From Candidatus Aerophobota bacterium (GTDB lineage Bacteria > Aerophobota > Aerophobia > Aerophobales > B47-G16), in NCBI GenBank assembly GCA_003648815.1, contig QMPZ01000002.1, forward strand, positions 1 to 39,751: DNA of 39,751 nt. Direction: 5' to 3'. Position 1 is the stretch's first letter; each line of letters begins with the position of its first letter. The notes below the pieces were generated by a model that saw only the letters and a program-made list of their open reading frames with translations, was not told the DNA's origin and searched no databases. This document shows, one piece after another, positions 16,065 through 26,015 of the stretch. Position numbers and translations under genes: made by a program.

Positions 16065-17276
16065 ATGGTTTCTGCATTGAAGGACAAGAACATCCTTTTA
16101 GGAATAACCGGGAGCATCGCTGCCTACAAGGCGGCTGAGATCATAAGGCTTCTGAGGAAAAGAGGGGCCCAGGTATATCCCATTATGACCAGGGCAGCCA
16201 CTTACTTCGTCCACCCCATCACCTTTCAGACTCTGGCCTCCCGGAGGGTGGTTCTCGAGTTATTCAGGCAGGAGGATAAGATAAAGCATATCTCATTAGC
16301 TGAGCTCGCCGATGCCCTTCTAATTGCTCCAGCCAGCGCTAATATAATAGCCAAGCTCGCCAATGGGATTGCCGATGATATCCTCAGCACCGTCGCCTTA
16401 GCCACCAAGGCCCCTGTGCTCATTGCTCCGGCGATGAATCATCAGATGTATGTCAATCCTATCCTTCAGCAGAACATAGATAAGCTCAAAAGAGTTGGGG
16501 TCAAGTTCATCGGACCGGAGAAGGGCCAGCTGGCCTCGGGCAAGGTGGGCATAGGGCGAATGAGCGAGCCTTCCCGCATCGTGGAGTGCCTGGAAAGCCT
16601 CATTCAATGCAGGGACGAGTTTAAAGGAAAATGCTTTCTGGTGACTGCTGGCCCCACCAGGGAGAGGATAGATGAGGTGCGCTTTATCAGCAATTACTCA
16701 AGCGGGAAGATGGGCTATGCCCTGGCCGAAGAGGGAATATGTCGGGGTGCGAGGATAATTCTCGTCAGCGGTCCCACCTCACTTGTTCCTCCTGCTGAGG
16801 CTGAATTTTATCGCGTGGAATCGGCCGAAGAGATGAGGAAAAAGGTGATGGAAGAATTTGCGCGAGTTGATGGAGTTTTGATGGCAGCGGCGGTTTCGGA
16901 CTTTCGACCTGAAAGGAAAAGGGAGGGCAAGATTAAAAAATCGGTCGGGGAAAGGTTCACCTTGGAGCTGAGGCAAAATCCAGATATTTTAAGCGAGTTG
17001 GGGAAAAGAAAGGAAGGCAAGATCTTGGTGGGATTCTGTGCCGAGACGGAAAACCTGGAAGAGGAGGCAAAGAGGAAGTTGAGGGAGAAGAACCTTGATT
17101 TGATTGTGGCTAATGACATTACCCTGGAAGGAGCCGGTTTCGGCGTGGATACCAACATCGTGGTCCTCATCGATCGATATGGAAACTTAACTCACCTTTC
17201 CAAAAGAAGCAAGAGGGAGGTGGCGAGGGCAGTATGGGACAAAATAAAGGAGATAACGAAAAATCTTTATAGATGA
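16065..17276 (+). CDS. coaBC: bifunctional phosphopantothenoylcysteine decarboxylase / phosphopantothenate-cysteine ligase
   Basis: ILLGITGSIAAYKA flavoprotein N-domain, PAMN motif, C-terminal ligase domain (ISNYSSGKMG, AAAVSDF). Confidence 0.93.
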   Translation: MVSALKDKNILLGITGSIAAYKAAEIIRLLRKRGAQVYPIMTRAATYFVHPITFQTLASRRVVLELFRQEDKIKHISLAELADALLIAPASANIIAKLANGIADDILSTVALATKAPVLIAPAMNHQMYVNPILQQNIDKLKRVGVKFIGPEKGQLASGKVGIGRMSEPSRIVECLESLIQCRDEFKGKCFLVTAGPTRERIDEVRFISNYSSGKMGYALAEEGICRGARIILVSGPTSLVPPAEAEFYRVESAEEMRKKVMEEFARVDGVLMAAAVSDFRPERKREGKIKKSVGERFTLELRQNPDILSELGKRKEGKILVGFCAETENLEEEAKRKLREKNLDLIVANDITLEGAGFGVDTNIVVLIDRYGNLTHLSKRSKREVARAVWDKIKEITKNLYR

Positions 17277-17331
17277 ATTTTCTCTCCGCCTCATCAATTC
17301 TGGTAAAATTAAAGAAAAAATACCAACCTAA

Positions 17332-17359
17332 TTGACTAAACGCTAAAGTTCGCTAAAAT
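17332..17359 (+). promoter_or_regulatory. candidate sigma70 promoter of the AAA+/VWA cassette (TTGACT-16-TAAAAT)
   Basis: TTGACT 17332-17337 and TAAAAT 17354-17359. The spacer carries a direct repeat CGCTAAA (17341-17347, 17351-17357). It lies in the 121-nt gap after coaBC. Confidence 0.55.
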
Positions 17360-17397
17360 TATAGTGGTAAGAATTACCGTCTCCTTCCTAAAAGAAG

Positions 17398-17961
17398 ATG
17401 GCAAAGTATATCGTCAGGACAGGAAAAGGTAGAACTTTCCTGTTTCTGGTAAAAAGAAAAAATGAGCTTATAGGGCATATCGACTATGACTTCATCCTGA
17501 GAGGAGGAATCCTTCCCGTAAGATCTAAGATAATGGCCTGTGGAAAGATAGCGGGATGGGTTGAGACCTTTTACCCCTCGATTTCCTGCATCAGGGTCTA
17601 CAACAAGAGAAGAGAAGAGGTCGCCTATCTGGAAAGATCTAACAGGTTAAGAATAGACGGTGTATATGTTTCGTTTAGCAGGCTATCCAAGGAGGAGACG
17701 ATTCTCGTTGAGGAAAGGGAGGGGAGGGGAAAGCTCAAGGAAAGGCTGGAAAAAACAGGTTTAACACATTCTTACCTCCTCGAGGACTCAAAGATTAAGG
17801 GAAGGGTCTATTGCTTTGCCAGAGAGAGCGATATATCCACCCTTCTTTATACCAGCACTGACATTGAAGCTGGCATCGATGAGCTTTTGCGGTTTTTACC
17901 CTTAGCCATAGCGAGGAGAGTCTTCGAGCAGGAGTTCATAAGGAGGTTTATGGGAAGATAG
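17398..17961 (+). CDS. hypothetical protein (ORFan A); free-standing paralog of the N-terminal domain of the AAA+ ATPase at 18957
   Basis: 187-aa ORF with no recognisable motif. By-eye collinear similarity to residues 1-175 of the downstream ATPase (see findings). No strong SD. Confidence 0.65.
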   Translation: MAKYIVRTGKGRTFLFLVKRKNELIGHIDYDFILRGGILPVRSKIMACGKIAGWVETFYPSISCIRVYNKRREEVAYLERSNRLRIDGVYVSFSRLSKEETILVEEREGRGKLKERLEKTGLTHSYLLEDSKIKGRVYCFARESDISTLLYTSTDIEAGIDELLRFLPLAIARRVFEQEFIRRFMGR

Positions 17962-17977
17962 CTTCCCTTGAGCAAAG

Positions 17978-18922
17978 ATGAAGATAAAGGAACTTCATGA
18001 TGAGTTAGGGGAAGGTATAGGCGTATATATAGACAGCAAGTTTTTTGAGATAAGGATAAAGGAAGCTTGTCAGTCAAGAATCTACGGAGATGATAGCGAC
18101 TGCCGGGCAATCATATGGGTTGAAAGCGGCAGAAAAATCTATAGATATTTTAAAGTATTTACCGAGAGAATTACCCGTCTCTTTGAGATAAGCATCAAGG
18201 ATAAAGAAGAGGATTTTATCAGATATTTGAGCAGGGGCTTTGAAAAGAGCTTCGGACCCGGAAGAATGAGGATAAATCCGACTTATAAGGGATTGGAGGA
18301 ACTAAGGAAATATGCTGCCAGAAAGGCTATAAAATATGGCCTTCTGACAGAGGTGCTCGGCTGGGCCACTCTTATGATAGCTACCTGTGCGGATCTTAAG
18401 GTTATGGCGGTGATTATGGGCTTTTATTTCGTATTCGGAGATGTCATTTGTGGTCTTCTCGTTTCCTGGTTAGCTGATCTGGGCACATTTACCTCTCCTT
18501 TCTTTCAGATTGGTGCCTTTCCTGCGGGAAGGCGTCTCTTGAAAAGATATATCTCACTCAATGAAGGCCTGTTAGCTCATTTTAAGAGAAGGGGGAAAAG
18601 AATAAAGGGGCTTGAGGAAAGATTTTTAAAAACGCAGGATGATGTAGAAAAAAAGTCATCTTTGAGTAGACTCTTGGAAAGAGAAAACGAGAGGTTAGCT
18701 AAGGAATGGGAACCTGTGGCTCTGTCCTTCGCAAAATGCAACGAGTTCAAGGGACTCATCGTGGAGTATAAGGGAAGATATCGGGATTCCTTTGCCTTTT
18801 GCAATTACATAGTCAACGGAATAGAACCTGAGGGGGAGGAACTGGACGTATGGCACATCCCGATAGAGGGACCGGAGGAGGAAGGGGAAGGAAGCGATTT
18901 TGATAAGATCTGGGAGGAATGA
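17978..18922 (+). CDS. hypothetical membrane protein (ORFan B): soluble N-domain, two adjacent TM helices, charged coiled-coil-like segment, acidic tail
   Basis: Hydrophobic hairpin LLTEVLGWATLMIATCADL / VMAVIMGFYFVFGDVICGLLVSWLA (about nt 18341-18475). KRRGKRIKGLEERFLKTQDDVEKK...ERENERLAKEWE segment. C-terminal EGPEEEGEGSDFDKIWEE. Confidence 0.65.
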   Translation: MKIKELHDELGEGIGVYIDSKFFEIRIKEACQSRIYGDDSDCRAIIWVESGRKIYRYFKVFTERITRLFEISIKDKEEDFIRYLSRGFEKSFGPGRMRINPTYKGLEELRKYAARKAIKYGLLTEVLGWATLMIATCADLKVMAVIMGFYFVFGDVICGLLVSWLADLGTFTSPFFQIGAFPAGRRLLKRYISLNEGLLAHFKRRGKRIKGLEERFLKTQDDVEKKSSLSRLLERENERLAKEWEPVALSFAKCNEFKGLIVEYKGRYRDSFAFCNYIVNGIEPEGEELDVWHIPIEGPEEEGEGSDFDKIWEE

Positions 18923-18956
18923 ATGCGGTCAAAAATAGCAAAGGGGGAAGGTAAAG

Positions 18957-20384
18957 ATGAAAAGATGCATAGTGGAGTTTAAGGAAAAATCTGCTCTGAT
19001 CAAGGACCTTTCCTCGGAAAAGATGATAAAGCTGGATTTTCCTCCTCTTACGGAGAAGATATATCTTCCTGTGCATTACCATATAGATATGGTCGAAGGA
19101 GCTCATCTGAAGAGGATTGGTAGGTTGAGCGTCTGGATGGCTGAAAACTACCCCATAGAGGATTATCACATAAGGATGGTGAGTCGCAACAGGACAACAT
19201 ATCTATCCTTCAAGGATGAGCAGACCTTAGTTCTCAAGTCAGCATCCGACGTCTACGAGATAATGGTCATCGACGAGCGAAAACTGAACAGAAGGCAAAG
19301 GGAAAAGCTTAAGAAAAACGGCTTCTTTAAGGGCTATGACATCAAAAGGAACGTAAGTGTGGGAAGTTTTTATCTCTTCAGGAAGGAGTCCAGGATCAGA
19401 GGACTTCTGGAGATAGAGGAGGCATTTGACCTTCTCGACTTTCTTTCCTTAATCGTGCTGGACAGGTTAATGGAGGAACTGAAGGACAAGGAGGCTAAGG
19501 TCTCCAAGTCCGTTGAGGTGCCGAAGGAGGCTAAGGAAGGAAGGTACAGGAACTTTGTCCTCCTGAACTACCCGGTCAACAGGGTAACTGAAGCTGTGGA
19601 GTACGTGGATCAAAGGGGGGAGTGGGAGCTCTTCTGTGAACTGATGGATAAGGGAAAGCCCGTGCTTTTGAACGGACCGACTGGCTGTGGAAAGAGCACG
19701 ATGATCAAGTACTACGCTTATATAAATAACCTGCCCTTTTATATGTCTCCCACCGGAAACAGGGAAACGACCATGGATGACATAGTTGGCTCCTGGGTTC
19801 CTGCTGATCCAAAGCCCATAAAGGCGCCAGGAGCTTTGATTTTAGCTATGGTCCACAATGGCATATTCTACTTTGAGGAGATAGGGCCCGTGGATCCCGG
19901 TGTACTGTACGGCCTGCACGGCGTTCTGGATGACAGAAAAATAACGGTTCAGTCACAGTATGGGTTTGAGGTCATCGAAGGGGGAGAAAATTTTAAGATA
20001 GTCTCCTCGGGAAACCTGGACAGCAAATATACCTCCATTGAGCTCAGCGATGCCTTTCTCGAGAGGTGGGCTCAGATAAGGATGGATTATCCGGACAAGG
20101 AAGGCACCATCAAGATACTAAAGTCAAGGGCACCCAAGGTGGATGATAAGATAGCCGAGATGATAACCGATTTACTTTTTGACTTCAGAGAGGTGCTGAA
20201 GGGCTATAGAAGAGATATGGGACTCAGAGGAGCTGTTGAGGTCTGTCAGGCAGCTCAAAACGCCAACCAACCCCTCAAGAAGCTGATAGAAGTACATATG
20301 CTCAACCCGAAGTCCACCTATGAGAGCGATAGGACCCTGTACAAGAAACTGATGGAGAAGATCGACAAGAGAGTGAGGAGGTGA
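18957..20384 (+). CDS. AAA+ ATPase, AAA_5 / CbbQ-NorQ-GvpN (MoxR-related) type, with about 205-aa N-terminal extension
   Basis: Walker A GPTGCGKS (19674-19697). Walker B-like IFYFEEIG (EE at 19875-19880). Sensor-1 SSGN. LSDAFLERWAQIRMDYPDKEGTIKIL (Arg finger / YP...E..IL signature of the CbbQ/NorQ group). Sensor-2 GLRGA. AAGGGGGAAGG RBS. Confidence 0.85.
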   Translation: MKRCIVEFKEKSALIKDLSSEKMIKLDFPPLTEKIYLPVHYHIDMVEGAHLKRIGRLSVWMAENYPIEDYHIRMVSRNRTTYLSFKDEQTLVLKSASDVYEIMVIDERKLNRRQREKLKKNGFFKGYDIKRNVSVGSFYLFRKESRIRGLLEIEEAFDLLDFLSLIVLDRLMEELKDKEAKVSKSVEVPKEAKEGRYRNFVLLNYPVNRVTEAVEYVDQRGEWELFCELMDKGKPVLLNGPTGCGKSTMIKYYAYINNLPFYMSPTGNRETTMDDIVGSWVPADPKPIKAPGALILAMVHNGIFYFEEIGPVDPGVLYGLHGVLDDRKITVQSQYGFEVIEGGENFKIVSSGNLDSKYTSIELSDAFLERWAQIRMDYPDKEGTIKILKSRAPKVDDKIAEMITDLLFDFREVLKGYRRDMGLRGAVEVCQAAQNANQPLKKLIEVHMLNPKSTYESDRTLYKKLMEKIDKRVRR

Positions 20385-20390
20385 TAAGAG

Positions 20391-22409
20391 GTGGCCAATT
20401 GTGAAAAGATAAGAGAGGAGCTTAAAAGAATAGTGGATTTTAGAATAGGTGAAGGAGCGAGCAGAAGACATCCTCTCATTTTCAATAAGAGGACTTTCCT
20501 TCCCGCTCTCACCGGAGCGGCCATCTTTACCGATGGTGAGAAGATATATCTTCCCCTTCAGTTTAGTCTTTGCCGGGATGAGTCGGACAATCAGATGATG
20601 GTCGCCAACGCGGTAAGGCATGAGTCGGACCATATAAAGGAGTTCATCAAGCTACACAGAAAAATAAGCGGTTCTGATAAGTACAACCCCAAGTATGTAA
20701 ATCGATTCTTGGAGGATTTCTTTCTTCAGGACCACTTCAGGGAAAATTCCACCCTTGCCCATGAGATATTCAACATAGTCGAGGACAACAGGATAGACCG
20801 CAGGGCCAGAGAGGAACTTCCTGGACTGAGGCGGTTTTCAGAGGAGAAGGAAAGACGAGTGTATCTTTCCAGACGGCCAAGTCCGAAGTATTTGCTGAAG
20901 AAGGGAAGGAAGCTGGACGCCTTCAGGGAGTTCTTCTTAGAGAAGACCCTGCTCGATGAGACCGTTGACGAGGTACCTGAGGAGTATCAGAAGCTTTTGA
21001 AGGAATGCGTGGATATTGCTCGATCAGCTGAGGGTAAGGACATTTATGCTTCCTTTGCCGCGACCAAGAAGATCTATGACAAGTTCAAGGAAAACTTTGA
21101 CATAAAGGGGCCGATGACTTCCCTTCCCCCCTTTGGTGGCCGGGGTCATGATAAGATGTATCCCGGTATTCCGAGAAGGTACAGGGGTTCTGTAAAGCCA
21201 GGGGAAGGAAGAGGAGAAGAGGAAAGGAAGGCCGGACAGGGGGAAGGAGAGAAGATAAAAAAGGAAGAAAATAGAAAGGAGGGGATGAGAAGTTCTGAGG
21301 AGGCCAAGGAGATTGAGCGGGAAAAGGAGATGAGAAGAGAGGACCAAGCTAAGGCAGACAGGGAAAAGAAAGGAAGAGAAAAGGGGCAGAGAAAGGAAGA
21401 GGGAAAGAGAGAAAAGAGAAAAGAGGGGGAAGGTGAGCAGGATGAAAAAGAGAAATCCTTCAGGGACCAGATGGATGAAGGAAAGAGAACTGAGAAAAGA
21501 AGTGAAGATTTAAATAGCAGATATGATCCTCATAGAAGCAGACCCCTCATTAGACTGGTGCCGAAGCCAACTCCTGGGGTAAACTTAAAAGTTCCCAAAC
21601 CCTCTCTTTACGATGTGAGGGAATCGCAGAGGATAATAAATAAGTACGATGGTGAGATCAGGGCTATTGAAAGTTATTTTAAGAAGCTGGAGGAAAGATA
21701 TCGGGGAAAGAAGATGGCAAAGGAGGGGGAGGAGATAGATATAGGGGAGTATGTGCAGGCGGAGTTAGAATATGAGGCCACGGGGGTAAGGCCGGCGAAA
21801 AAGAAGATATTCCGGAAGAGAGCCCCTGTTAAGAGGAAGGTAGCCTGGGCGATATTAGCTGATATAAGTGCCTCTACGGGATTCGGGTTCGGATACAGGG
21901 TAATTGATTCCATCAAGGAAGCTCTCCTGATCCAGGGAGAAGCACTGAGCTATTCGGGTTATCCCTTTGGCATCTTCGCCTTCCACTCGGGTGGGAATAC
22001 CTTGAGGGAACTGATGGAATACAAGGATACAGTGTATGTGATAAAGGATTTCGGGGAGGATTACACCCCTGAGAACAGGGCAAGGGTGATGTCTCTTTAT
22101 CCCTACGGAGGGACGTTGATGGTGAATGCGATAAAGTATGTGTCCGACAAGCTCAAGAAAATAGAGGGCAGACCAAAGGGTCTGTCCATAATAACTGATG
22201 GAGAACCGGACGTTCCGGAAGAGGTGAGAGCTCTCCTCCAGAAACTGCCGGAGGATGGAATTCTTCCCTTCCTGTTCGTCATCGGCTCAGAGCACGAGAA
22301 GTTTGCCAGGTCACTTATGTCTGAGTACGTGATCATAAAGAAAGACAAAATAAAGGAGCTACCGAATGAGGTGCTGAGAATATTTACCACCTATGGAATT
22401 ATGAAATAA
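20391..22409 (+). CDS. NorD/CbbO/CobT-like VWA (MIDAS) protein with N-terminal HExxH metallopeptidase-like region and K/E/R-rich linker
   Basis: GTG start 10 nt after GAGGAGG. FTDGEKIYLP...RHESDHI (HExxH at 20619-20633). Pre-VWA segment EGEEIDIGEYVQAELE...KRKVAWAILADISASTG with MIDAS DxSxS (21861-21875), GGT (T575) and ITDGEPD (D603). Confidence 0.85.
   Translation: MANCEKIREELKRIVDFRIGEGASRRHPLIFNKRTFLPALTGAAIFTDGEKIYLPLQFSLCRDESDNQMMVANAVRHESDHIKEFIKLHRKISGSDKYNPKYVNRFLEDFFLQDHFRENSTLAHEIFNIVEDNRIDRRAREELPGLRRFSEEKERRVYLSRRPSPKYLLKKGRKLDAFREFFLEKTLLDETVDEVPEEYQKLLKECVDIARSAEGKDIYASFAATKKIYDKFKENFDIKGPMTSLPPFGGRGHDKMYPGIPRRYRGSVKPGEGRGEEERKAGQGEGEKIKKEENRKEGMRSSEEAKEIEREKEMRREDQAKADREKKGREKGQRKEEGKREKRKEGEGEQDEKEKSFRDQMDEGKRTEKRSEDLNSRYDPHRSRPLIRLVPKPTPGVNLKVPKPSLYDVRESQRIINKYDGEIRAIESYFKKLEERYRGKKMAKEGEEIDIGEYVQAELEYEATGVRPAKKKIFRKRAPVKRKVAWAILADISASTGFGFGYRVIDSIKEALLIQGEALSYSGYPFGIFAFHSGGNTLRELMEYKDTVYVIKDFGEDYTPENRARVMSLYPYGGTLMVNAIKYVSDKLKKIEGRPKGLSIITDGEPDVPEEVRALLQKLPEDGILPFLFVIGSEHEKFARSLMSEYVIIKKDKIKELPNEVLRIFTTYGIMK
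21192..21512 (+). repeat. purine-rich low-complexity tract encoding a K/E/R/G polyampholyte linker (aa about 268-374 of the VWA protein)
   Basis: Coding strand is almost exclusively A/G, with uninterrupted homopurine runs at 21200-21231 (32 nt), 21360-21386 (27 nt) and 21388-21433 (46 nt). No exact tandem unit. Confidence 0.85.
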
Positions 22410-22430
22410 AAAGATGGAGAGGAAAGATAA

Positions 22431-23363
22431 ATGAACAAAAAAAGGATTGCCTTGTGGATGGTGTTGGCAATCATCTTTATATGGCTCCTGTCCGGGATGT
22501 ATATCGTTCATCCAAATGAGGAGGGAGTGGTAAGGCGCTGGGGTAAATATACGGTTTCTACGGGTCCCGGAATGCATTATCACATTCCATGGCCTGTGGA
22601 AAGGGTAGATAAGGTAGCGGTGACCAAAATTGAGAAGATGGAGATCGGCTACCGGACGATAAAGAAGGGTCCTCCAGCAATTTATGAGCCTGTGGAGGAG
22701 GAAGCTTTAATGCTGACAGGGGACATGAACATAGTCGAGCTATGGTTCATAGTTCAATACAGGATTAAGGATGCTAAAAAATATCTTTTTAACATCAGAG
22801 GTCCTCAACAGATGATAAAGGATGCCGCAGAGGCATCGATGAGGCAGGTCGTCGGGGACAGAGGCGTTGACGAGGCATTGACCATTGGCAAGGAGGAAAT
22901 CCAGGAAGCTGTGGCGGAAAAACTTCAGGAGATTCTGGACTTGTACGAAAGCGGCATAGAGGTGGTTACGGTGAAGCTACAGGATGTTCATCCTCCTGGA
23001 GAGGTGAAGGCGGCCTTTGAGGCGGTTGCAAGTGCAAAGGAGACCAGAGAGCGATTGGTCAACGAAGCCCTGGGAAAATATAATCAGGAGATTCCCAGAG
23101 CTAAGGGTGAGGCGGAGAAGATAATAAGGCAGGCAGAGGCATACGCTGTGGAGAGGATAAGACGTGCTGAAGGCGATGCAAATAGATTCTTGGCCAGGCT
23201 GAGGGAATACAGAAAGGCCAAACAGGTTACGAAGGACAGGCTGTATCTCGAGACGATGCGGGAGATTCTGCCCGACATCGAAAAGATAGTTATACCTGAG
23301 GAGGAAGGGTTCATAAAGTTCTTGAACCTTAGGGGGAAAGGTTTGGAAGGTTCATCCAAGTGA
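22431..23363 (+). CDS. hflK: FtsH protease activity modulator HflK (SPFH domain)
   Basis: N-terminal TM helix, EEGVVRRWGKY...PGMHYHIPWP, SPFH core and a C-terminal coiled coil. Precedes hflC as usual. Confidence 0.88.
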   Translation: MNKKRIALWMVLAIIFIWLLSGMYIVHPNEEGVVRRWGKYTVSTGPGMHYHIPWPVERVDKVAVTKIEKMEIGYRTIKKGPPAIYEPVEEEALMLTGDMNIVELWFIVQYRIKDAKKYLFNIRGPQQMIKDAAEASMRQVVGDRGVDEALTIGKEEIQEAVAEKLQEILDLYESGIEVVTVKLQDVHPPGEVKAAFEAVASAKETRERLVNEALGKYNQEIPRAKGEAEKIIRQAEAYAVERIRRAEGDANRFLARLREYRKAKQVTKDRLYLETMREILPDIEKIVIPEEEGFIKFLNLRGKGLEGSSK

Positions 23364-23374
23364 GGTGAAAAGAC

Positions 23375-24307
23375 ATGAGCAAATTGAGAATAATTGAATT
23401 TATCATAGCCATAATCGGTCTTCTCACGCTTAACAGTGCCCTTTTTACGGTTGACGAGACAAATCAGGTGGTGGTCACTCAGCTTGGGAAACCGATTAAG
23501 GTGATAAAAGAGCCGGGTCTATACGTGAAGATTCCCTTTATTCAAAAGGCGAACAAATTTGAGGATAGGCTATTGGGCTATGATGTGGAGGCAAGAAGGT
23601 GCGTTACCAAGGACAAAAAGTACATCTTCCTCAACAACTACGCCAGATGGAGGATAGTCGATCCACTTTTATTTATGAAGACGGTGAGAAACGAGGCAGG
23701 AGCGCAGGCAAGACTGGACGATATAATTTACGCTGCTGTAAGGACTGAGGTGGGAAAGCACAATTTCATAGATGTCTTGAGGACCTCAAATAGAAAGATG
23801 TTGGCAGTAGAGCCTCTTCTGAAAAGGGAAAAAGAGGAAGAGAAGGTGGAGGTGGGAAGGGAAAAGATAATGCTCGATGCTACAAGGAGAGCTAATCAGA
23901 TAGCTAAGAGGTACGGGATAAAGGTAGTGGATGTGAGGATAAAGAGGGCGGACCTGCCCGAGGCAAACACCCATGCCGTATTTGCCAGGATGAAGGCGGA
24001 AAGAGAGAGAATATCAAATAGATATATATCCGAGGGAGAAGGGGAAAGGGCAAAGATATTAGGGGAAATGGAAAAGGAGCTGGCACGGATTCGCGCGGAG
24101 GCTTACAAGACAGCTCAACAGATAAAGGGAAAAGCAGATGCCACAGCCACCAGGATCTACGCAGAGGCTTACAAACAGGATCCGGATTTCTTTAATTTCC
24201 TGAAGACCCTCGAGACCTATAAGGAGACACTTCCGAAGAAGACAACAATTGTGGTTCCCTTAAGTTCAAAGTTCTTCAAGTATCTCACTCCAGAGGAGGA
24301 AGAGTAA
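23375..24307 (+). CDS. hflC: FtsH protease activity modulator HflC (SPFH domain)
   Basis: TM helix, VDETNQVVVTQLGKPIKVIKEPGLYVKIPFIQ, RIKRADLPE, ERERIS. Confidence 0.88.
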   Translation: MSKLRIIEFIIAIIGLLTLNSALFTVDETNQVVVTQLGKPIKVIKEPGLYVKIPFIQKANKFEDRLLGYDVEARRCVTKDKKYIFLNNYARWRIVDPLLFMKTVRNEAGAQARLDDIIYAAVRTEVGKHNFIDVLRTSNRKMLAVEPLLKREKEEEKVEVGREKIMLDATRRANQIAKRYGIKVVDVRIKRADLPEANTHAVFARMKAERERISNRYISEGEGERAKILGEMEKELARIRAEAYKTAQQIKGKADATATRIYAEAYKQDPDFFNFLKTLETYKETLPKKTTIVVPLSSKFFKYLTPEEEE

Positions 24308-24327
24308 ACCTTTCCTTCTTTAAAGAG

Positions 24328-24972
24328 ATGAAGAAAGGGCTGTTCATAAGCTTTGAGGGAATAGATAAAAGTGGAAAGAGCACGCAGATATCCCTCCTGG
24401 CGGACTATCTTAAGAGGAGAGGATATGAGGTGCTCACGACGTGTGAGCCTGGGGGAACTGAATTGGGGAAAATAATCAAGGAGGTGCTTCTTTCACCTTC
24501 CCTTGATGGTATGAGCAGGATCAGTGAGCTCTTCTTATATTTGGCTGATAGAAGAGAACATGTGGAAAAGGTGATCAAACCAGCTTTGAGAGGTGGAAAG
24601 GTGGTAATCTCTGATCGTTTTGTCGATGCCTCCGTTGCTTATCAGGGTTATGGAAGAGGAATAAGCATAAGCTGGATCGAGGATTTGAACAAAATAGTCA
24701 CAGGCGGGATCTTGCCGGACATTACCTTTCTCTTGGATATAAGCCCATCTTTAGCCAAGGAGCGGTCTGAGAAGAAGGACAGGATGGAAAGGGAAGATAC
24801 AAAATTTTATGAGAAGGTGCGCCAGGGATATCTTGAGATTGCCAAATCCTTTCCGGACAGAATCCGCATAATCAAAGCAACTCGAGGAGTTTGGGAGATT
24901 TTCTCAGAGGTTAAAAAAGAAATTTCTAAGTACTTAGATAAAGGACAAAAGGAATGTCGTTCCAAGACATAA
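24328..24972 (+). CDS. tmk: dTMP (thymidylate) kinase
   Basis: FISFEGIDKSGKSTQ P-loop, DRF, LID region. Confidence 0.93.
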   Translation: MKKGLFISFEGIDKSGKSTQISLLADYLKRRGYEVLTTCEPGGTELGKIIKEVLLSPSLDGMSRISELFLYLADRREHVEKVIKPALRGGKVVISDRFVDASVAYQGYGRGISISWIEDLNKIVTGGILPDITFLLDISPSLAKERSEKKDRMEREDTKFYEKVRQGYLEIAKSFPDRIRIIKATRGVWEIFSEVKKEISKYLDKGQKECRSKT

Positions 24973-25955
24973 TAGGCCAACGGCAAGCCATAAAGATGCT
25001 TCAAGCTAATATAGCCAGCTCCTCGATTGCAAATGCTTACCTTTTTGTCGGCCCTGAGGGAGTGGGAAGAACTCTTACCGCTTTCACCTTTGCCAAAGCG
25101 CTAAACTGTGAAAGAGGAGGAAAGGATAGCTGTGACAGCTGCTCTTCCTGTCGGAAAATTGATCATTTAAATCATCCTGATGTGCGGACTATAAAACCAG
25201 AGGGAAATTCCATTAAGATTGACCAGATTAGAGACTTAAAAAGAGAGATTGGATATAAGCTTTATGAGGGGAAAAAAAGGGTTTGGATTATCCAGGAGGC
25301 AGATAAATTAACCTTAGAGGCCTCCAACTCCCTTCTTAAAATATTGGAAGAACCTCCTTCCACTGCGGTGCTCATCTTAATTGCTCAATCCTTGAGGAAC
25401 CTGCCTCCCACTATTTCCTCTCGCTGCCAGCTCATCCGTTTTCTTCCGCTTTCCTCCAGGCAGATAGAAAAGATCTTAAATGAAAGATTGGGCGGAGAGC
25501 CCCAAAAGATACGTCTCATTGGAAGATTATCTAAGGGGAGGGTCTCAGAGGCGATGAAGTTGATGAAAGAGGAGACTTTTCTAAGGGAGAGGGAAGATCT
25601 CTTAAACAGGATATGTGGTGAGCTCAAGATTGAGGATGTATTTAGTCTGGCTGATCGGTGGAAAAGTTATGACAGGGAGAAAATTGAGGATTTTCTGGAT
25701 GTGCTGCTTTTTTGGTTTCGCGACCTTTTAGTTCTGAATCAAAAGGGAGATCAGAACCTGATAGTTAACTTAGACAGGACAGATCAGCTGAAAAGATATG
25801 CTAAGATGTATTCCTCCTGGGCGATAAAGCAAGCCATCCTGACAATAGAGAGAACCAAAGATTATCTTCGAGATAACGTCACCCCAAAGTTCGCCTTAGA
25901 AGTTATGGGGCTGAAATTAATGAGGATACTTGAGGGGGTCATTCCGGAAGAATGA
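24954..25955 (+). CDS. holB: DNA polymerase III subunit delta'
   Basis: MSFQDIIGQ, YLFVGPEGVGRT, zinc module CDSCSSC, ILEEPP, SRCQ. Overlaps tmk by 19 nt. Confidence 0.9.
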   Translation: MSFQDIIGQRQAIKMLQANIASSSIANAYLFVGPEGVGRTLTAFTFAKALNCERGGKDSCDSCSSCRKIDHLNHPDVRTIKPEGNSIKIDQIRDLKREIGYKLYEGKKRVWIIQEADKLTLEASNSLLKILEEPPSTAVLILIAQSLRNLPPTISSRCQLIRFLPLSSRQIEKILNERLGGEPQKIRLIGRLSKGRVSEAMKLMKEETFLREREDLLNRICGELKIEDVFSLADRWKSYDREKIEDFLDVLLFWFRDLLVLNQKGDQNLIVNLDRTDQLKRYAKMYSSWAIKQAILTIERTKDYLRDNVTPKFALEVMGLKLMRILEGVIPEE

Positions 25956-25980
25956 ATGGAAGCCCATCTTCCCCCCTCAA
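25930..25980 (+). repeat. inverted repeat TTGAGGGGG / CCCCCTCAA (copy 1) straddling the holB stop codon
   Basis: Arms at 25930-25938 and 25972-25980. The same arms recur at 35173/35197 and 35399/35415. The 17-mer TTCCCCCCTCAACGCTT (25969-25985) equals the reverse complement of 35394-35410. Confidence 0.8.
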
Positions 25981-25981
25981 C

Positions 25982-26015
25982 GCTTTTGCTTCAAAGAGAA
26001 AAGCTTTTAATTTTT
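25982..26015 (+). terminator. weak AT-rich hairpin plus T-tract after holB (possible intrinsic terminator)
   Basis: GCTTTT (25982-25987) pairs with AAAAGC (25999-26004), followed by TTTTAATTTTT. Confidence 0.4.

Follow-up and report, generated by a model that had tools for sequence, protein, structure and literature searches.

Results

A four-gene cassette with one domain in two copies

The window analysed here is a stretch of 39,751 nucleotides of DNA from Candidatus Aerophobota bacterium (contig QMPZ01000002.1 of assembly GCA_003648815.1). Its + strand carries four tightly spaced open reading frames (ORFs), A-B-C-D, with A placed two genes 5' of C, the gene for an ATPase with an N-terminal extension. 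An initial annotation had proposed that the product of A is a separate copy of this extension, and the ORFs and residues quoted in support of the proposal were all located where it had put them. The genes, and the parts into which the ATPase divides, are the following.

17398..17961, + strand: gene A, 187 amino acids (aa), free-standing copy of a new beta-rich domain
17978..18922, + strand: gene B, 314 aa, whose product has a hydrophobic hairpin in the middle (~residues 125-170) and an acidic tail at its C terminus, from hydropathy and the ortholog alignment
18957..20384, + strand: gene C (ATPase), 475 aa
18957..19481, + strand: ATPase residues 1-175, fused copy of the domain, from BLASTP, shuffles and reciprocal profiles
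19482..19571, + strand: charged linker, ATPase residues 176-205, with a predicted local distance difference test score (pLDDT) <50 at residues 183-194 and a length that differs between clades
19572..20384, + strand: MoxR-class AAA+ module, CbbQ/NorQ-like, from Pfam AAA_5, PDB sequence matches and Foldseek
20391..22409, + strand: gene D, 672 aa, comprising an N-domain, a Lys/Glu-rich linker and a C-terminal VWA domain

Homology of A to the N-terminal domain of the ATPase

BLASTP, shuffled-sequence controls and reciprocal profiles agreed with the proposal that A is a separately encoded paralog of the extension on the ATPase. BLASTP of A against residues 1-205 of C gave an E-value (E) of 5e-8, with 27% identity over 131 aligned columns. 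In a Smith-Waterman alignment (BLOSUM62, 11/1) the same pair scored 102 (z ~11, Gumbel-fit p ~3e-7), far above the shuffled controls (4000 composition-preserving shuffles; mean 34-35, standard deviation 6, maximum 67), and the other comparisons of A, with B, with D and with the AAA+ module of C, scored only 31-40. A profile built exclusively from free copies matched the ATPase N terminus (E = 1.2e-9) and one built exclusively from fused copies matched A over profile positions 1-167 (E = 1.7e-10); neither profile matched any other six-frame ORF of the window. In clade 3 of the family (see below), the free-copy profile matched the fused domains with E down to 2e-14. When the free and fused families were compared by hhalign, they were collinear from residue 1 to ~157 (E = 2.7e-4, probability 41%).

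Both A and the ATPase N-domain are rich in Lys, Glu and Arg, which is what a resemblance due to chance or to a composition artefact would have in its favour. Shuffles that preserved this composition never exceeded 67, however, against the 102 observed, and the reciprocal family profiles matched at E ~1e-9 to 1e-10, and more strongly still in clade 3. A similarity by chance or composition was rejected on these grounds, and we hold it to be practically impossible. A and ATPase residues 1-175 are homologous.

The AlphaFold2 model of A had a pLDDT of 94.7 and a predicted template modelling score (pTM) of 0.90. In that of the ATPase, the N-domain was modelled with a pLDDT of ~80-94, followed by the disordered linker (residues 183-194) and then by the AAA+ module. 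Both models pass in the same order through seven strands, two or three short strands, a helix or helices, three strands and C-terminal helices; A and the fused domain are predicted to have the same order of secondary-structure elements.

The domain is beta-rich and previously undescribed

We found 35 close homologs of A, each at least 54% identical to it and 181-220 aa in length, none of them with a Pfam domain. The closest, 99% identical, comes from a Candidatus Aerophobetes metagenome-assembled genome (MAG). Over the 35 sequences of the free family, 37 columns are invariant. When 1.84 billion representatives were searched exhaustively by HMMER with a joint profile of the free copy A and its fused counterpart, only 33 relatives were returned at E <= 0.001, among them ~30 free proteins of 167-195 aa and two ATPases with the N-terminal domain.

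In Pfam, the best match to A was DUF6143 with E = 0.17, and no family recurred over the 37 family members examined. Scans with the NCBIfam and PADLOC profiles gave no match to the A domain, its best profile match among PDB sequences had E = 0.21, and for the A model Foldseek found nothing at E <= 0.001 in PDB or BFVD. Foldseek matches of this model to sliding clamps and to OspA were rejected, the TM-scores being <0.3.

Below that level of significance, the PDB match of highest probability was a Tubby C-terminal domain (2fim_A, probability 0.93, query TM-score (TMq) 0.40), and the best matches in BFVD were giant-virus proteins of unknown function (probability 0.96-1.0, TMq 0.37-0.48). Tubby-like barrels are closed, with 12 strands around a central C-terminal helix; the A model has ~12-13 strands and then a conserved hydrophobic C-terminal helix. 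On the other hand, the E-values are weak (0.002-0.04; 0.038 for 2fim_A), the TM-scores stay <0.5 and there is no sequence-profile link. A Tubby-like barrel around a C-terminal helix is a lead that the model offers for the A domain, and no classification. In the literature we found no description of the domain, of its free-plus-fused pairing or of the family of C-terminal tails reported below. A and its fused copy represent a previously undescribed beta-rich domain.

Free and fused copies accompany each other in three clades

Loci with this type of ATPase, 54 in number, were gathered from genome and metagenome scans and look-ups and annotated with the family profiles; the fused family was recovered via a full-length ATPase query and the locus scans. 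Three clades were distinguished.

Clade 1: Aerophobetes and "Clostridia"-labelled MAGs; ATPase 68-100% identical to C; gene order A-B-C-D
Clade 2: Candidatus Nealsonbacteria (candidate phyla radiation, CPR) and relatives; ATPase 38-43% identical to C; gene order D-A-x-C
Clade 3: includes the Candidatus Pacearchaeota (DPANN) protein MBS3075027.1; ATPase 30-34% identical to C; gene order B'-C-(0 to several small genes)-D-A

The fused N-domain is present in every one of the 52 ATPases (of 54) whose 5' end is intact, and one free copy in each of the 36 loci long enough to judge. In the remaining 18 loci, the sequence ends where the free copy would be expected. Surveyed for whether homologs occur fused, free or in both states, the family gave a single answer, both, in every informative locus. 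Alongside the two copies, each sufficiently long locus also encodes a NorD-like VWA protein and one or more small proteins that end in a conserved Trp motif.

Neighbour-joining trees were built from 30 free and 41 fused domains; 200 of 200 bootstraps separated the free copies from the fused ones, with all three clades on either side. Mean identity was 43% among the free copies and 41% among the fused copies, against 16% between free and fused. Since all clades stand on both sides of the split, the trees place the duplication before the separation of the three clades, which span Bacteria and Archaea. Judged from the sequences, the free and fused pair is an old, maintained two-copy architecture.

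An old duplication with both copies maintained since contradicts the suggestion of the initial annotation that A could "equally" be a remnant of gene fission or fusion, which reciprocal monophyly (200 of 200), similar divergence and co-occurrence in 36 of 36 loci do not support. Nothing but the paralogy of A and the ATPase speaks for A as the decaying product of a recent fission or fusion, with no function of its own. Against it stand the 37 invariant columns over the 35 free sequences, the confident AlphaFold2 model of A, the retention of free copies in three clades and two domains of life, the reciprocal monophyly of the two forms, and a conservation of free copies similar to that of fused ones (43% versus 41% identity). 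We regard such a remnant as extremely improbable.

The cassette is built around a MoxR-VWA core

The AAA+ module of C matched Pfam AAA_5 (PF07728) over residues 235-370 with 50.4 bits, against a cutoff of 22. Its matches among PDB sequences were midasin (3e-25), CbbQ (9e-15) and NorQ (3.5e-13), and Foldseek aligned the module with CbbQ2 (6l1q_A, E = 1e-15, target TM-score (TMt) 0.83) and with NorQ (9qh7_E, TMt 0.88). In NCBIfam, C belongs to none of the named equivalogs GvpN, CbbQ, NorQ and MadB (30.2 bits for MadB, against 475); its identification as the gas-vesicle protein GvpN was rejected, the best match reaching 51.5 bits against a cutoff of 266.8. The initial annotation had remarked that CbbQ/NorQ-type ATPases normally have no domain of the kind that precedes the module in C, and this was borne out: the solved chains have 231-281 residues and align only to C residues ~209-452, within its C-terminal 270 residues, so those ATPases lack the extension.

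The alignment of C contains the motifs GPTGCGKST (Walker A), FYFEEIG (Walker B), SSGN, FLERW and GLRGA. Walker A is canonical; the canonical form of Walker B is hhhhDE. In FYFEEIG (ATPase residues 305-311, nucleotides (nt) 19869-19889), Glu-Glu replaces Asp-Glu, and its conservation in all three clades marks it as a family trait and no local mutation.

In D, the alignment of orthologs shows R76, H77, E78, D80 and H81 to be invariant (RHESDH, an HExxH motif; nt 20619-20633), as are E125, N128, D132, N133 and D136 further downstream in the N-domain (20763-20798). These residues and the HExxH motif could form a zinc-peptidase-like site; D matched no peptidase family in Pfam. In the VWA domain, the residues of the metal ion-dependent adhesion site (MIDAS), D491, S493, S495, T575 and D603, are invariant in 10 orthologs (DISAS at nt 21861-21875), and the D profile matched NorD VWA chains with E = 1.3e-13 and 2e-11. 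Between the two domains, the linker (21200-21560, residues ~270-390) is long, of low complexity and rich in Lys, Glu and Arg, and its length varies among orthologs; it is placed like the NorD linker that NorQ remodels. Profile scans of A, B and D with Pfam, NCBIfam and PADLOC gave no usable match. With a CbbQ/NorQ-like AAA+ module in C and a NorD-like D, the core of the cassette is a known MoxR-VWA pair.

Small proteins of the cassettes share C-terminal Trp tails

The second gene of the cassette, B, is syntenic in all clade-1 loci, and the tail of its product is conserved in the orthologs.

18842..18919, + strand: C-terminal tail of B, LDVWHIPIEGPEEEGEGSDFDKIWEE, residues 289-314, with two Trp 20 residues apart

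Clade-1 B proteins end in LD(V/I)W(R/H)(I/M/V)xI(E/K)..DF(D/E)(K/R)(V/I)W(E/G). The pattern [DN][PVI]Wx[IVM]x[IVMF] has a single occurrence in the six-frame ORFs of the window, at the C terminus of B. B is weakly homologous to the tail-bearing B' proteins of clade 3 (E of 1e-5 to 3e-10 with the B profile), whose NPW tail stands at the same place as the tail of B; the B tail is related, if loosely, to the NPW(D/E)(I/V)xIPK tails of clade 3.

Four small proteins of Nealsonbacteria have the ending NPWEPVDIPKEK..INPWEKK, with a W-to-W spacing of 20, as in B. Clade-3 cassettes contain up to 13 small, mostly membrane proteins, every one of them with a tail like (F/I)(I/V)NPW(D/E)(I/V)xIPK(I/L). Tail-bearing small proteins number 1-13 per cassette overall, 13 being reached in one DPANN locus; tail cassettes of the related clades, with 3-13 such proteins, are found at L047:5356-13496, L048:1280-13988, L043:6442-10279, L032:300-5258 and L015:3794-8004. 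The pattern NPWxx(x)[IMVLF]P was found in 60 ORFs, all 60 on the strand of the ATPase and with the motif within ~25 residues of the C terminus, and in none on the other strand. The motif is often preceded, in clades 2 and 3, by a Ser/Pro-rich linker and LEEKVEK. The tail-bearing proteins had no match in Pfam.

Gene neighbourhood

In the window, the cassette is preceded by recJ, apt and coaBC and followed by hflK and hflC. Two features flank it closely.

22431..24307, + strand: hflK and hflC (Band_7/SPFH), starting 21 nt after D
17332..17359, + strand: promoter-like site TTGACT-16-TAAAAT, the best consensus match (10/12) in 16800-26000

The promoter-like site, a consensus match only, lies in the 121-bp gap between coaBC and A and ends 38 nt before the start codon of A. 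A search by consensus matches only found no terminator-like site on the + strand between D and hflK, and hflK-hflC are possibly co-transcribed with the cassette. The two genes lie directly 3' of D in all 19 clade-1 loci that reach that far, an arrangement seen in L005, L007-L009, L011-L014, L020-L023, L026, L028 and L029. The upstream neighbours of clade 1 vary, with recJ-apt-coaBC in the window and an opp transporter in L005. The constancy of hflK-hflC after D, together with this variation upstream, suggests a six-gene unit with a membrane-linked role.

Over genes A and B (17001-19000), the G+C content falls to 0.43-0.44, compared with 0.45-0.51 in most of the window. This mild dip could reflect a horizontal origin or merely Lys/Glu-rich coding. 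Directly upstream of one clade-3 cassette (L033:4515-5980) there are an ORF of 415 aa that resembles tyrosine recombinases and a small one that resembles ribbon-helix-helix proteins, a pair that hints at mobility. A phage origin was rejected, no relative being found in IMG/VR viral contigs.

Discussion

Relation to known systems

In NorQD, the VWA domain inserts a finger into the pore of the ATPase, and it is the linker of NorD that the motor remodels (PMC13036017). The cassette described here resembles NorQ-NorD and CbbQ-CbbO in its AAA+ module (TMt 0.81-0.88 to CbbQ2 and NorQ), in the adjacency of the ATPase and VWA genes, and in the NorD-like VWA domain of D with a full MIDAS; the succession of N-domain, long linker and VWA domain in D is also that of NorD (PMC13036017). 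However, NorQ and CbbQ have no N-terminal domain, whereas C has one. No nitric oxide reductase or Rubisco genes lie near the window cassette, and the neighbours in the other clades are unrelated. The cassette has additional obligatory genes, for the free copy of the domain and for the tail-bearing membrane proteins, D carries an invariant HExxH in its N-domain, and Walker B reads FEE rather than DE.

The vWA-MoxR ternary conflict systems (Kaur et al. 2020, PMC7159879) offer a second comparison. They also combine a MoxR and vWA core with further conserved components, some of their MoxR proteins have N-terminal extensions, and their linked small proteins are expanded and diversified. One domain can occur in two neighbouring products: the same effector-associated domain (EAD) is found in two adjacent gene products, where it is read as a homotypic adaptor (PMC7159879). 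By contrast, D ends with its VWA domain and has no fused effector domain, and the hosts of the ternary systems are multicellular bacteria, those of the present cassette Aerophobetes, CPR and DPANN. No VMAP, iSTAND, FtsH or beta-propeller component was detected in A, B or D with Pfam, NCBIfam and PADLOC, libraries that may lack a VMAP-C model. PADLOC gave no full-length defence match for the cassette proteins, the matches being to the short P-loop only (for example mad8, residues 231-255, E = 2.7e-5).

For the free copy itself, a parallel is offered by ClpT1 and ClpT2 of chloroplasts, which stand alone, are paralogous to the N-terminal domain of ClpC and serve as accessory subunits (PMC5347014). 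There, as may be the case here, a stand-alone homolog of an AAA+ N-domain works in the same system as an accessory subunit and is no pseudogene. ClpT and the ClpC N-domain consist of helical repeats, whereas the present domain is beta-rich and belongs to another AAA+ clade; moreover, ClpT is plant-specific and binds the protease core. We intend the comparison as an analogy only and do not propose membership.

What the free copy may do

The positions conserved in both the free and the fused family are almost all hydrophobic or glycine, as in a fold core, whereas each family has conserved polar residues of its own. What is conserved is, in the free copies, R, T, DF.L, ETF.P, THxY, CF.K, DIS and a C-terminal QE(F/Y)I helix, and in the fused ones P.L..EI.LPV.Y, GY.I and R..L.L. 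A shared core with different surfaces is unlike a simple decoy and fits a subfunctionalised accessory subunit better. Of the readings considered, we favour A as an accessory or adaptor subunit of the MoxR-VWA motor system, a role that seems plausible, if still short of probable.

N-domains of other AAA+ proteins act as docking modules. In the mechanism we envisage, C would form a hexamer in which the N-domains are the docking modules. A would have kept the fold while evolving a different conserved surface, and would work as an accessory or adaptor subunit that links the motor to the tail-bearing membrane proteins (B in the window) or to D. Its contact may be homotypic, with the fused copy, or may consist in binding of the Trp tail, and would couple clients to the motor. 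D would act like NorD, with the VWA finger reaching into the ATPase pore and the MIDAS site holding the client.

The initial annotation had also raised the possibility of a decoy or competitive regulator. Such an A would share its ligand with the fused N-domain and would thereby titrate clients away from the motor, or it would mimic a substrate. The same predicted order of secondary-structure elements in both forms would agree with such a function, as would the place of A as first gene of the operon in clade 1. A common ligand-binding surface is not evident, however, when free and fused copies conserve different polar residues and are only 16% identical to each other, and we consider a decoy improbable.

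The same conserved residues bear on a purely structural role, in which A would dock homotypically on the fused N-domains, for instance as the cap or the missing part of an N-terminal ring, and would bind no client. The hydrophobic core and the predicted fold are common to both copies and each locus has one free and one fused copy, as one would expect of such a role, and in other vWA-MoxR systems such pairs, encoded side by side, have been interpreted as homotypic adaptors (PMC7159879). The present data fit an adaptor equally, though, and the conserved polar motifs that are the free copies' own (THxY, CFEK and the C-terminal QE(F/Y)I helix) suggest a separate ligand. A structural role without clients therefore strikes us as rather unlikely, but worth keeping in view beside the adaptor role.

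The cassette as a whole may be an unrecognised AAA+ machine common to Aerophobetes, CPR bacteria and DPANN archaea, in which the putatively beta-barrel-like domain, present in two obligatory copies, would read the Trp motif ((D/N)-x-W-x-hydrophobic-x-I/P) of 1 to 13 small membrane proteins, and the motor and the NorD-like VWA/HExxH protein would remodel, assemble, extract or process them. We advance this as a speculative model, which has a minor share of our confidence. The MIT domains of Vps4 read the MIM tails of ESCRT-III, and tail reading by the present domain would be analogous, with the free paralog as a possible co-adaptor.

Several points count against A as a tail-coupled adaptor of an active motor. 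The clade-1 tail (D-V-W-H-I-P-I) is only loosely like the NPW tails of clades 2 and 3. The reader of the tail could be A, the fused domain or the MIDAS of D; MIDAS sites in other systems hold an acidic residue of the client. Walker B has Glu in place of Asp, so that the ATPase activity of C is an assumption. The hhalign probability between the free and fused families is a mere 41%, and the sampling is metagenomic, with ~54 loci of which many are closely related.

Significance

MoxR-VWA pairs are widespread, but how they work is understood for only a few of their clients, namely Rubisco, nitric oxide reductase and the chelatases. The paralogy of A and the ATPase is solid and moderately surprising, and the wider system to which it belongs is more interesting: a rare, hitherto undescribed four-part system of a few uncultured bacteria and archaea. 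Its MoxR-VWA core was already known, and the novelty lies in the accessory set, since a motor N-terminal domain, an obligatory free paralog of it and small membrane proteins with a shared C-terminal peptide set the system apart from the MoxR-VWA pairs described so far. That CPR and DPANN organisms, whose genomes are reduced, also have the system suggests that its role there is indispensable, possibly at the membrane. If the domain does read the peptide, client and recognition code would both be written in the operon, and the choice of substrate by a MoxR-VWA system would become directly testable.

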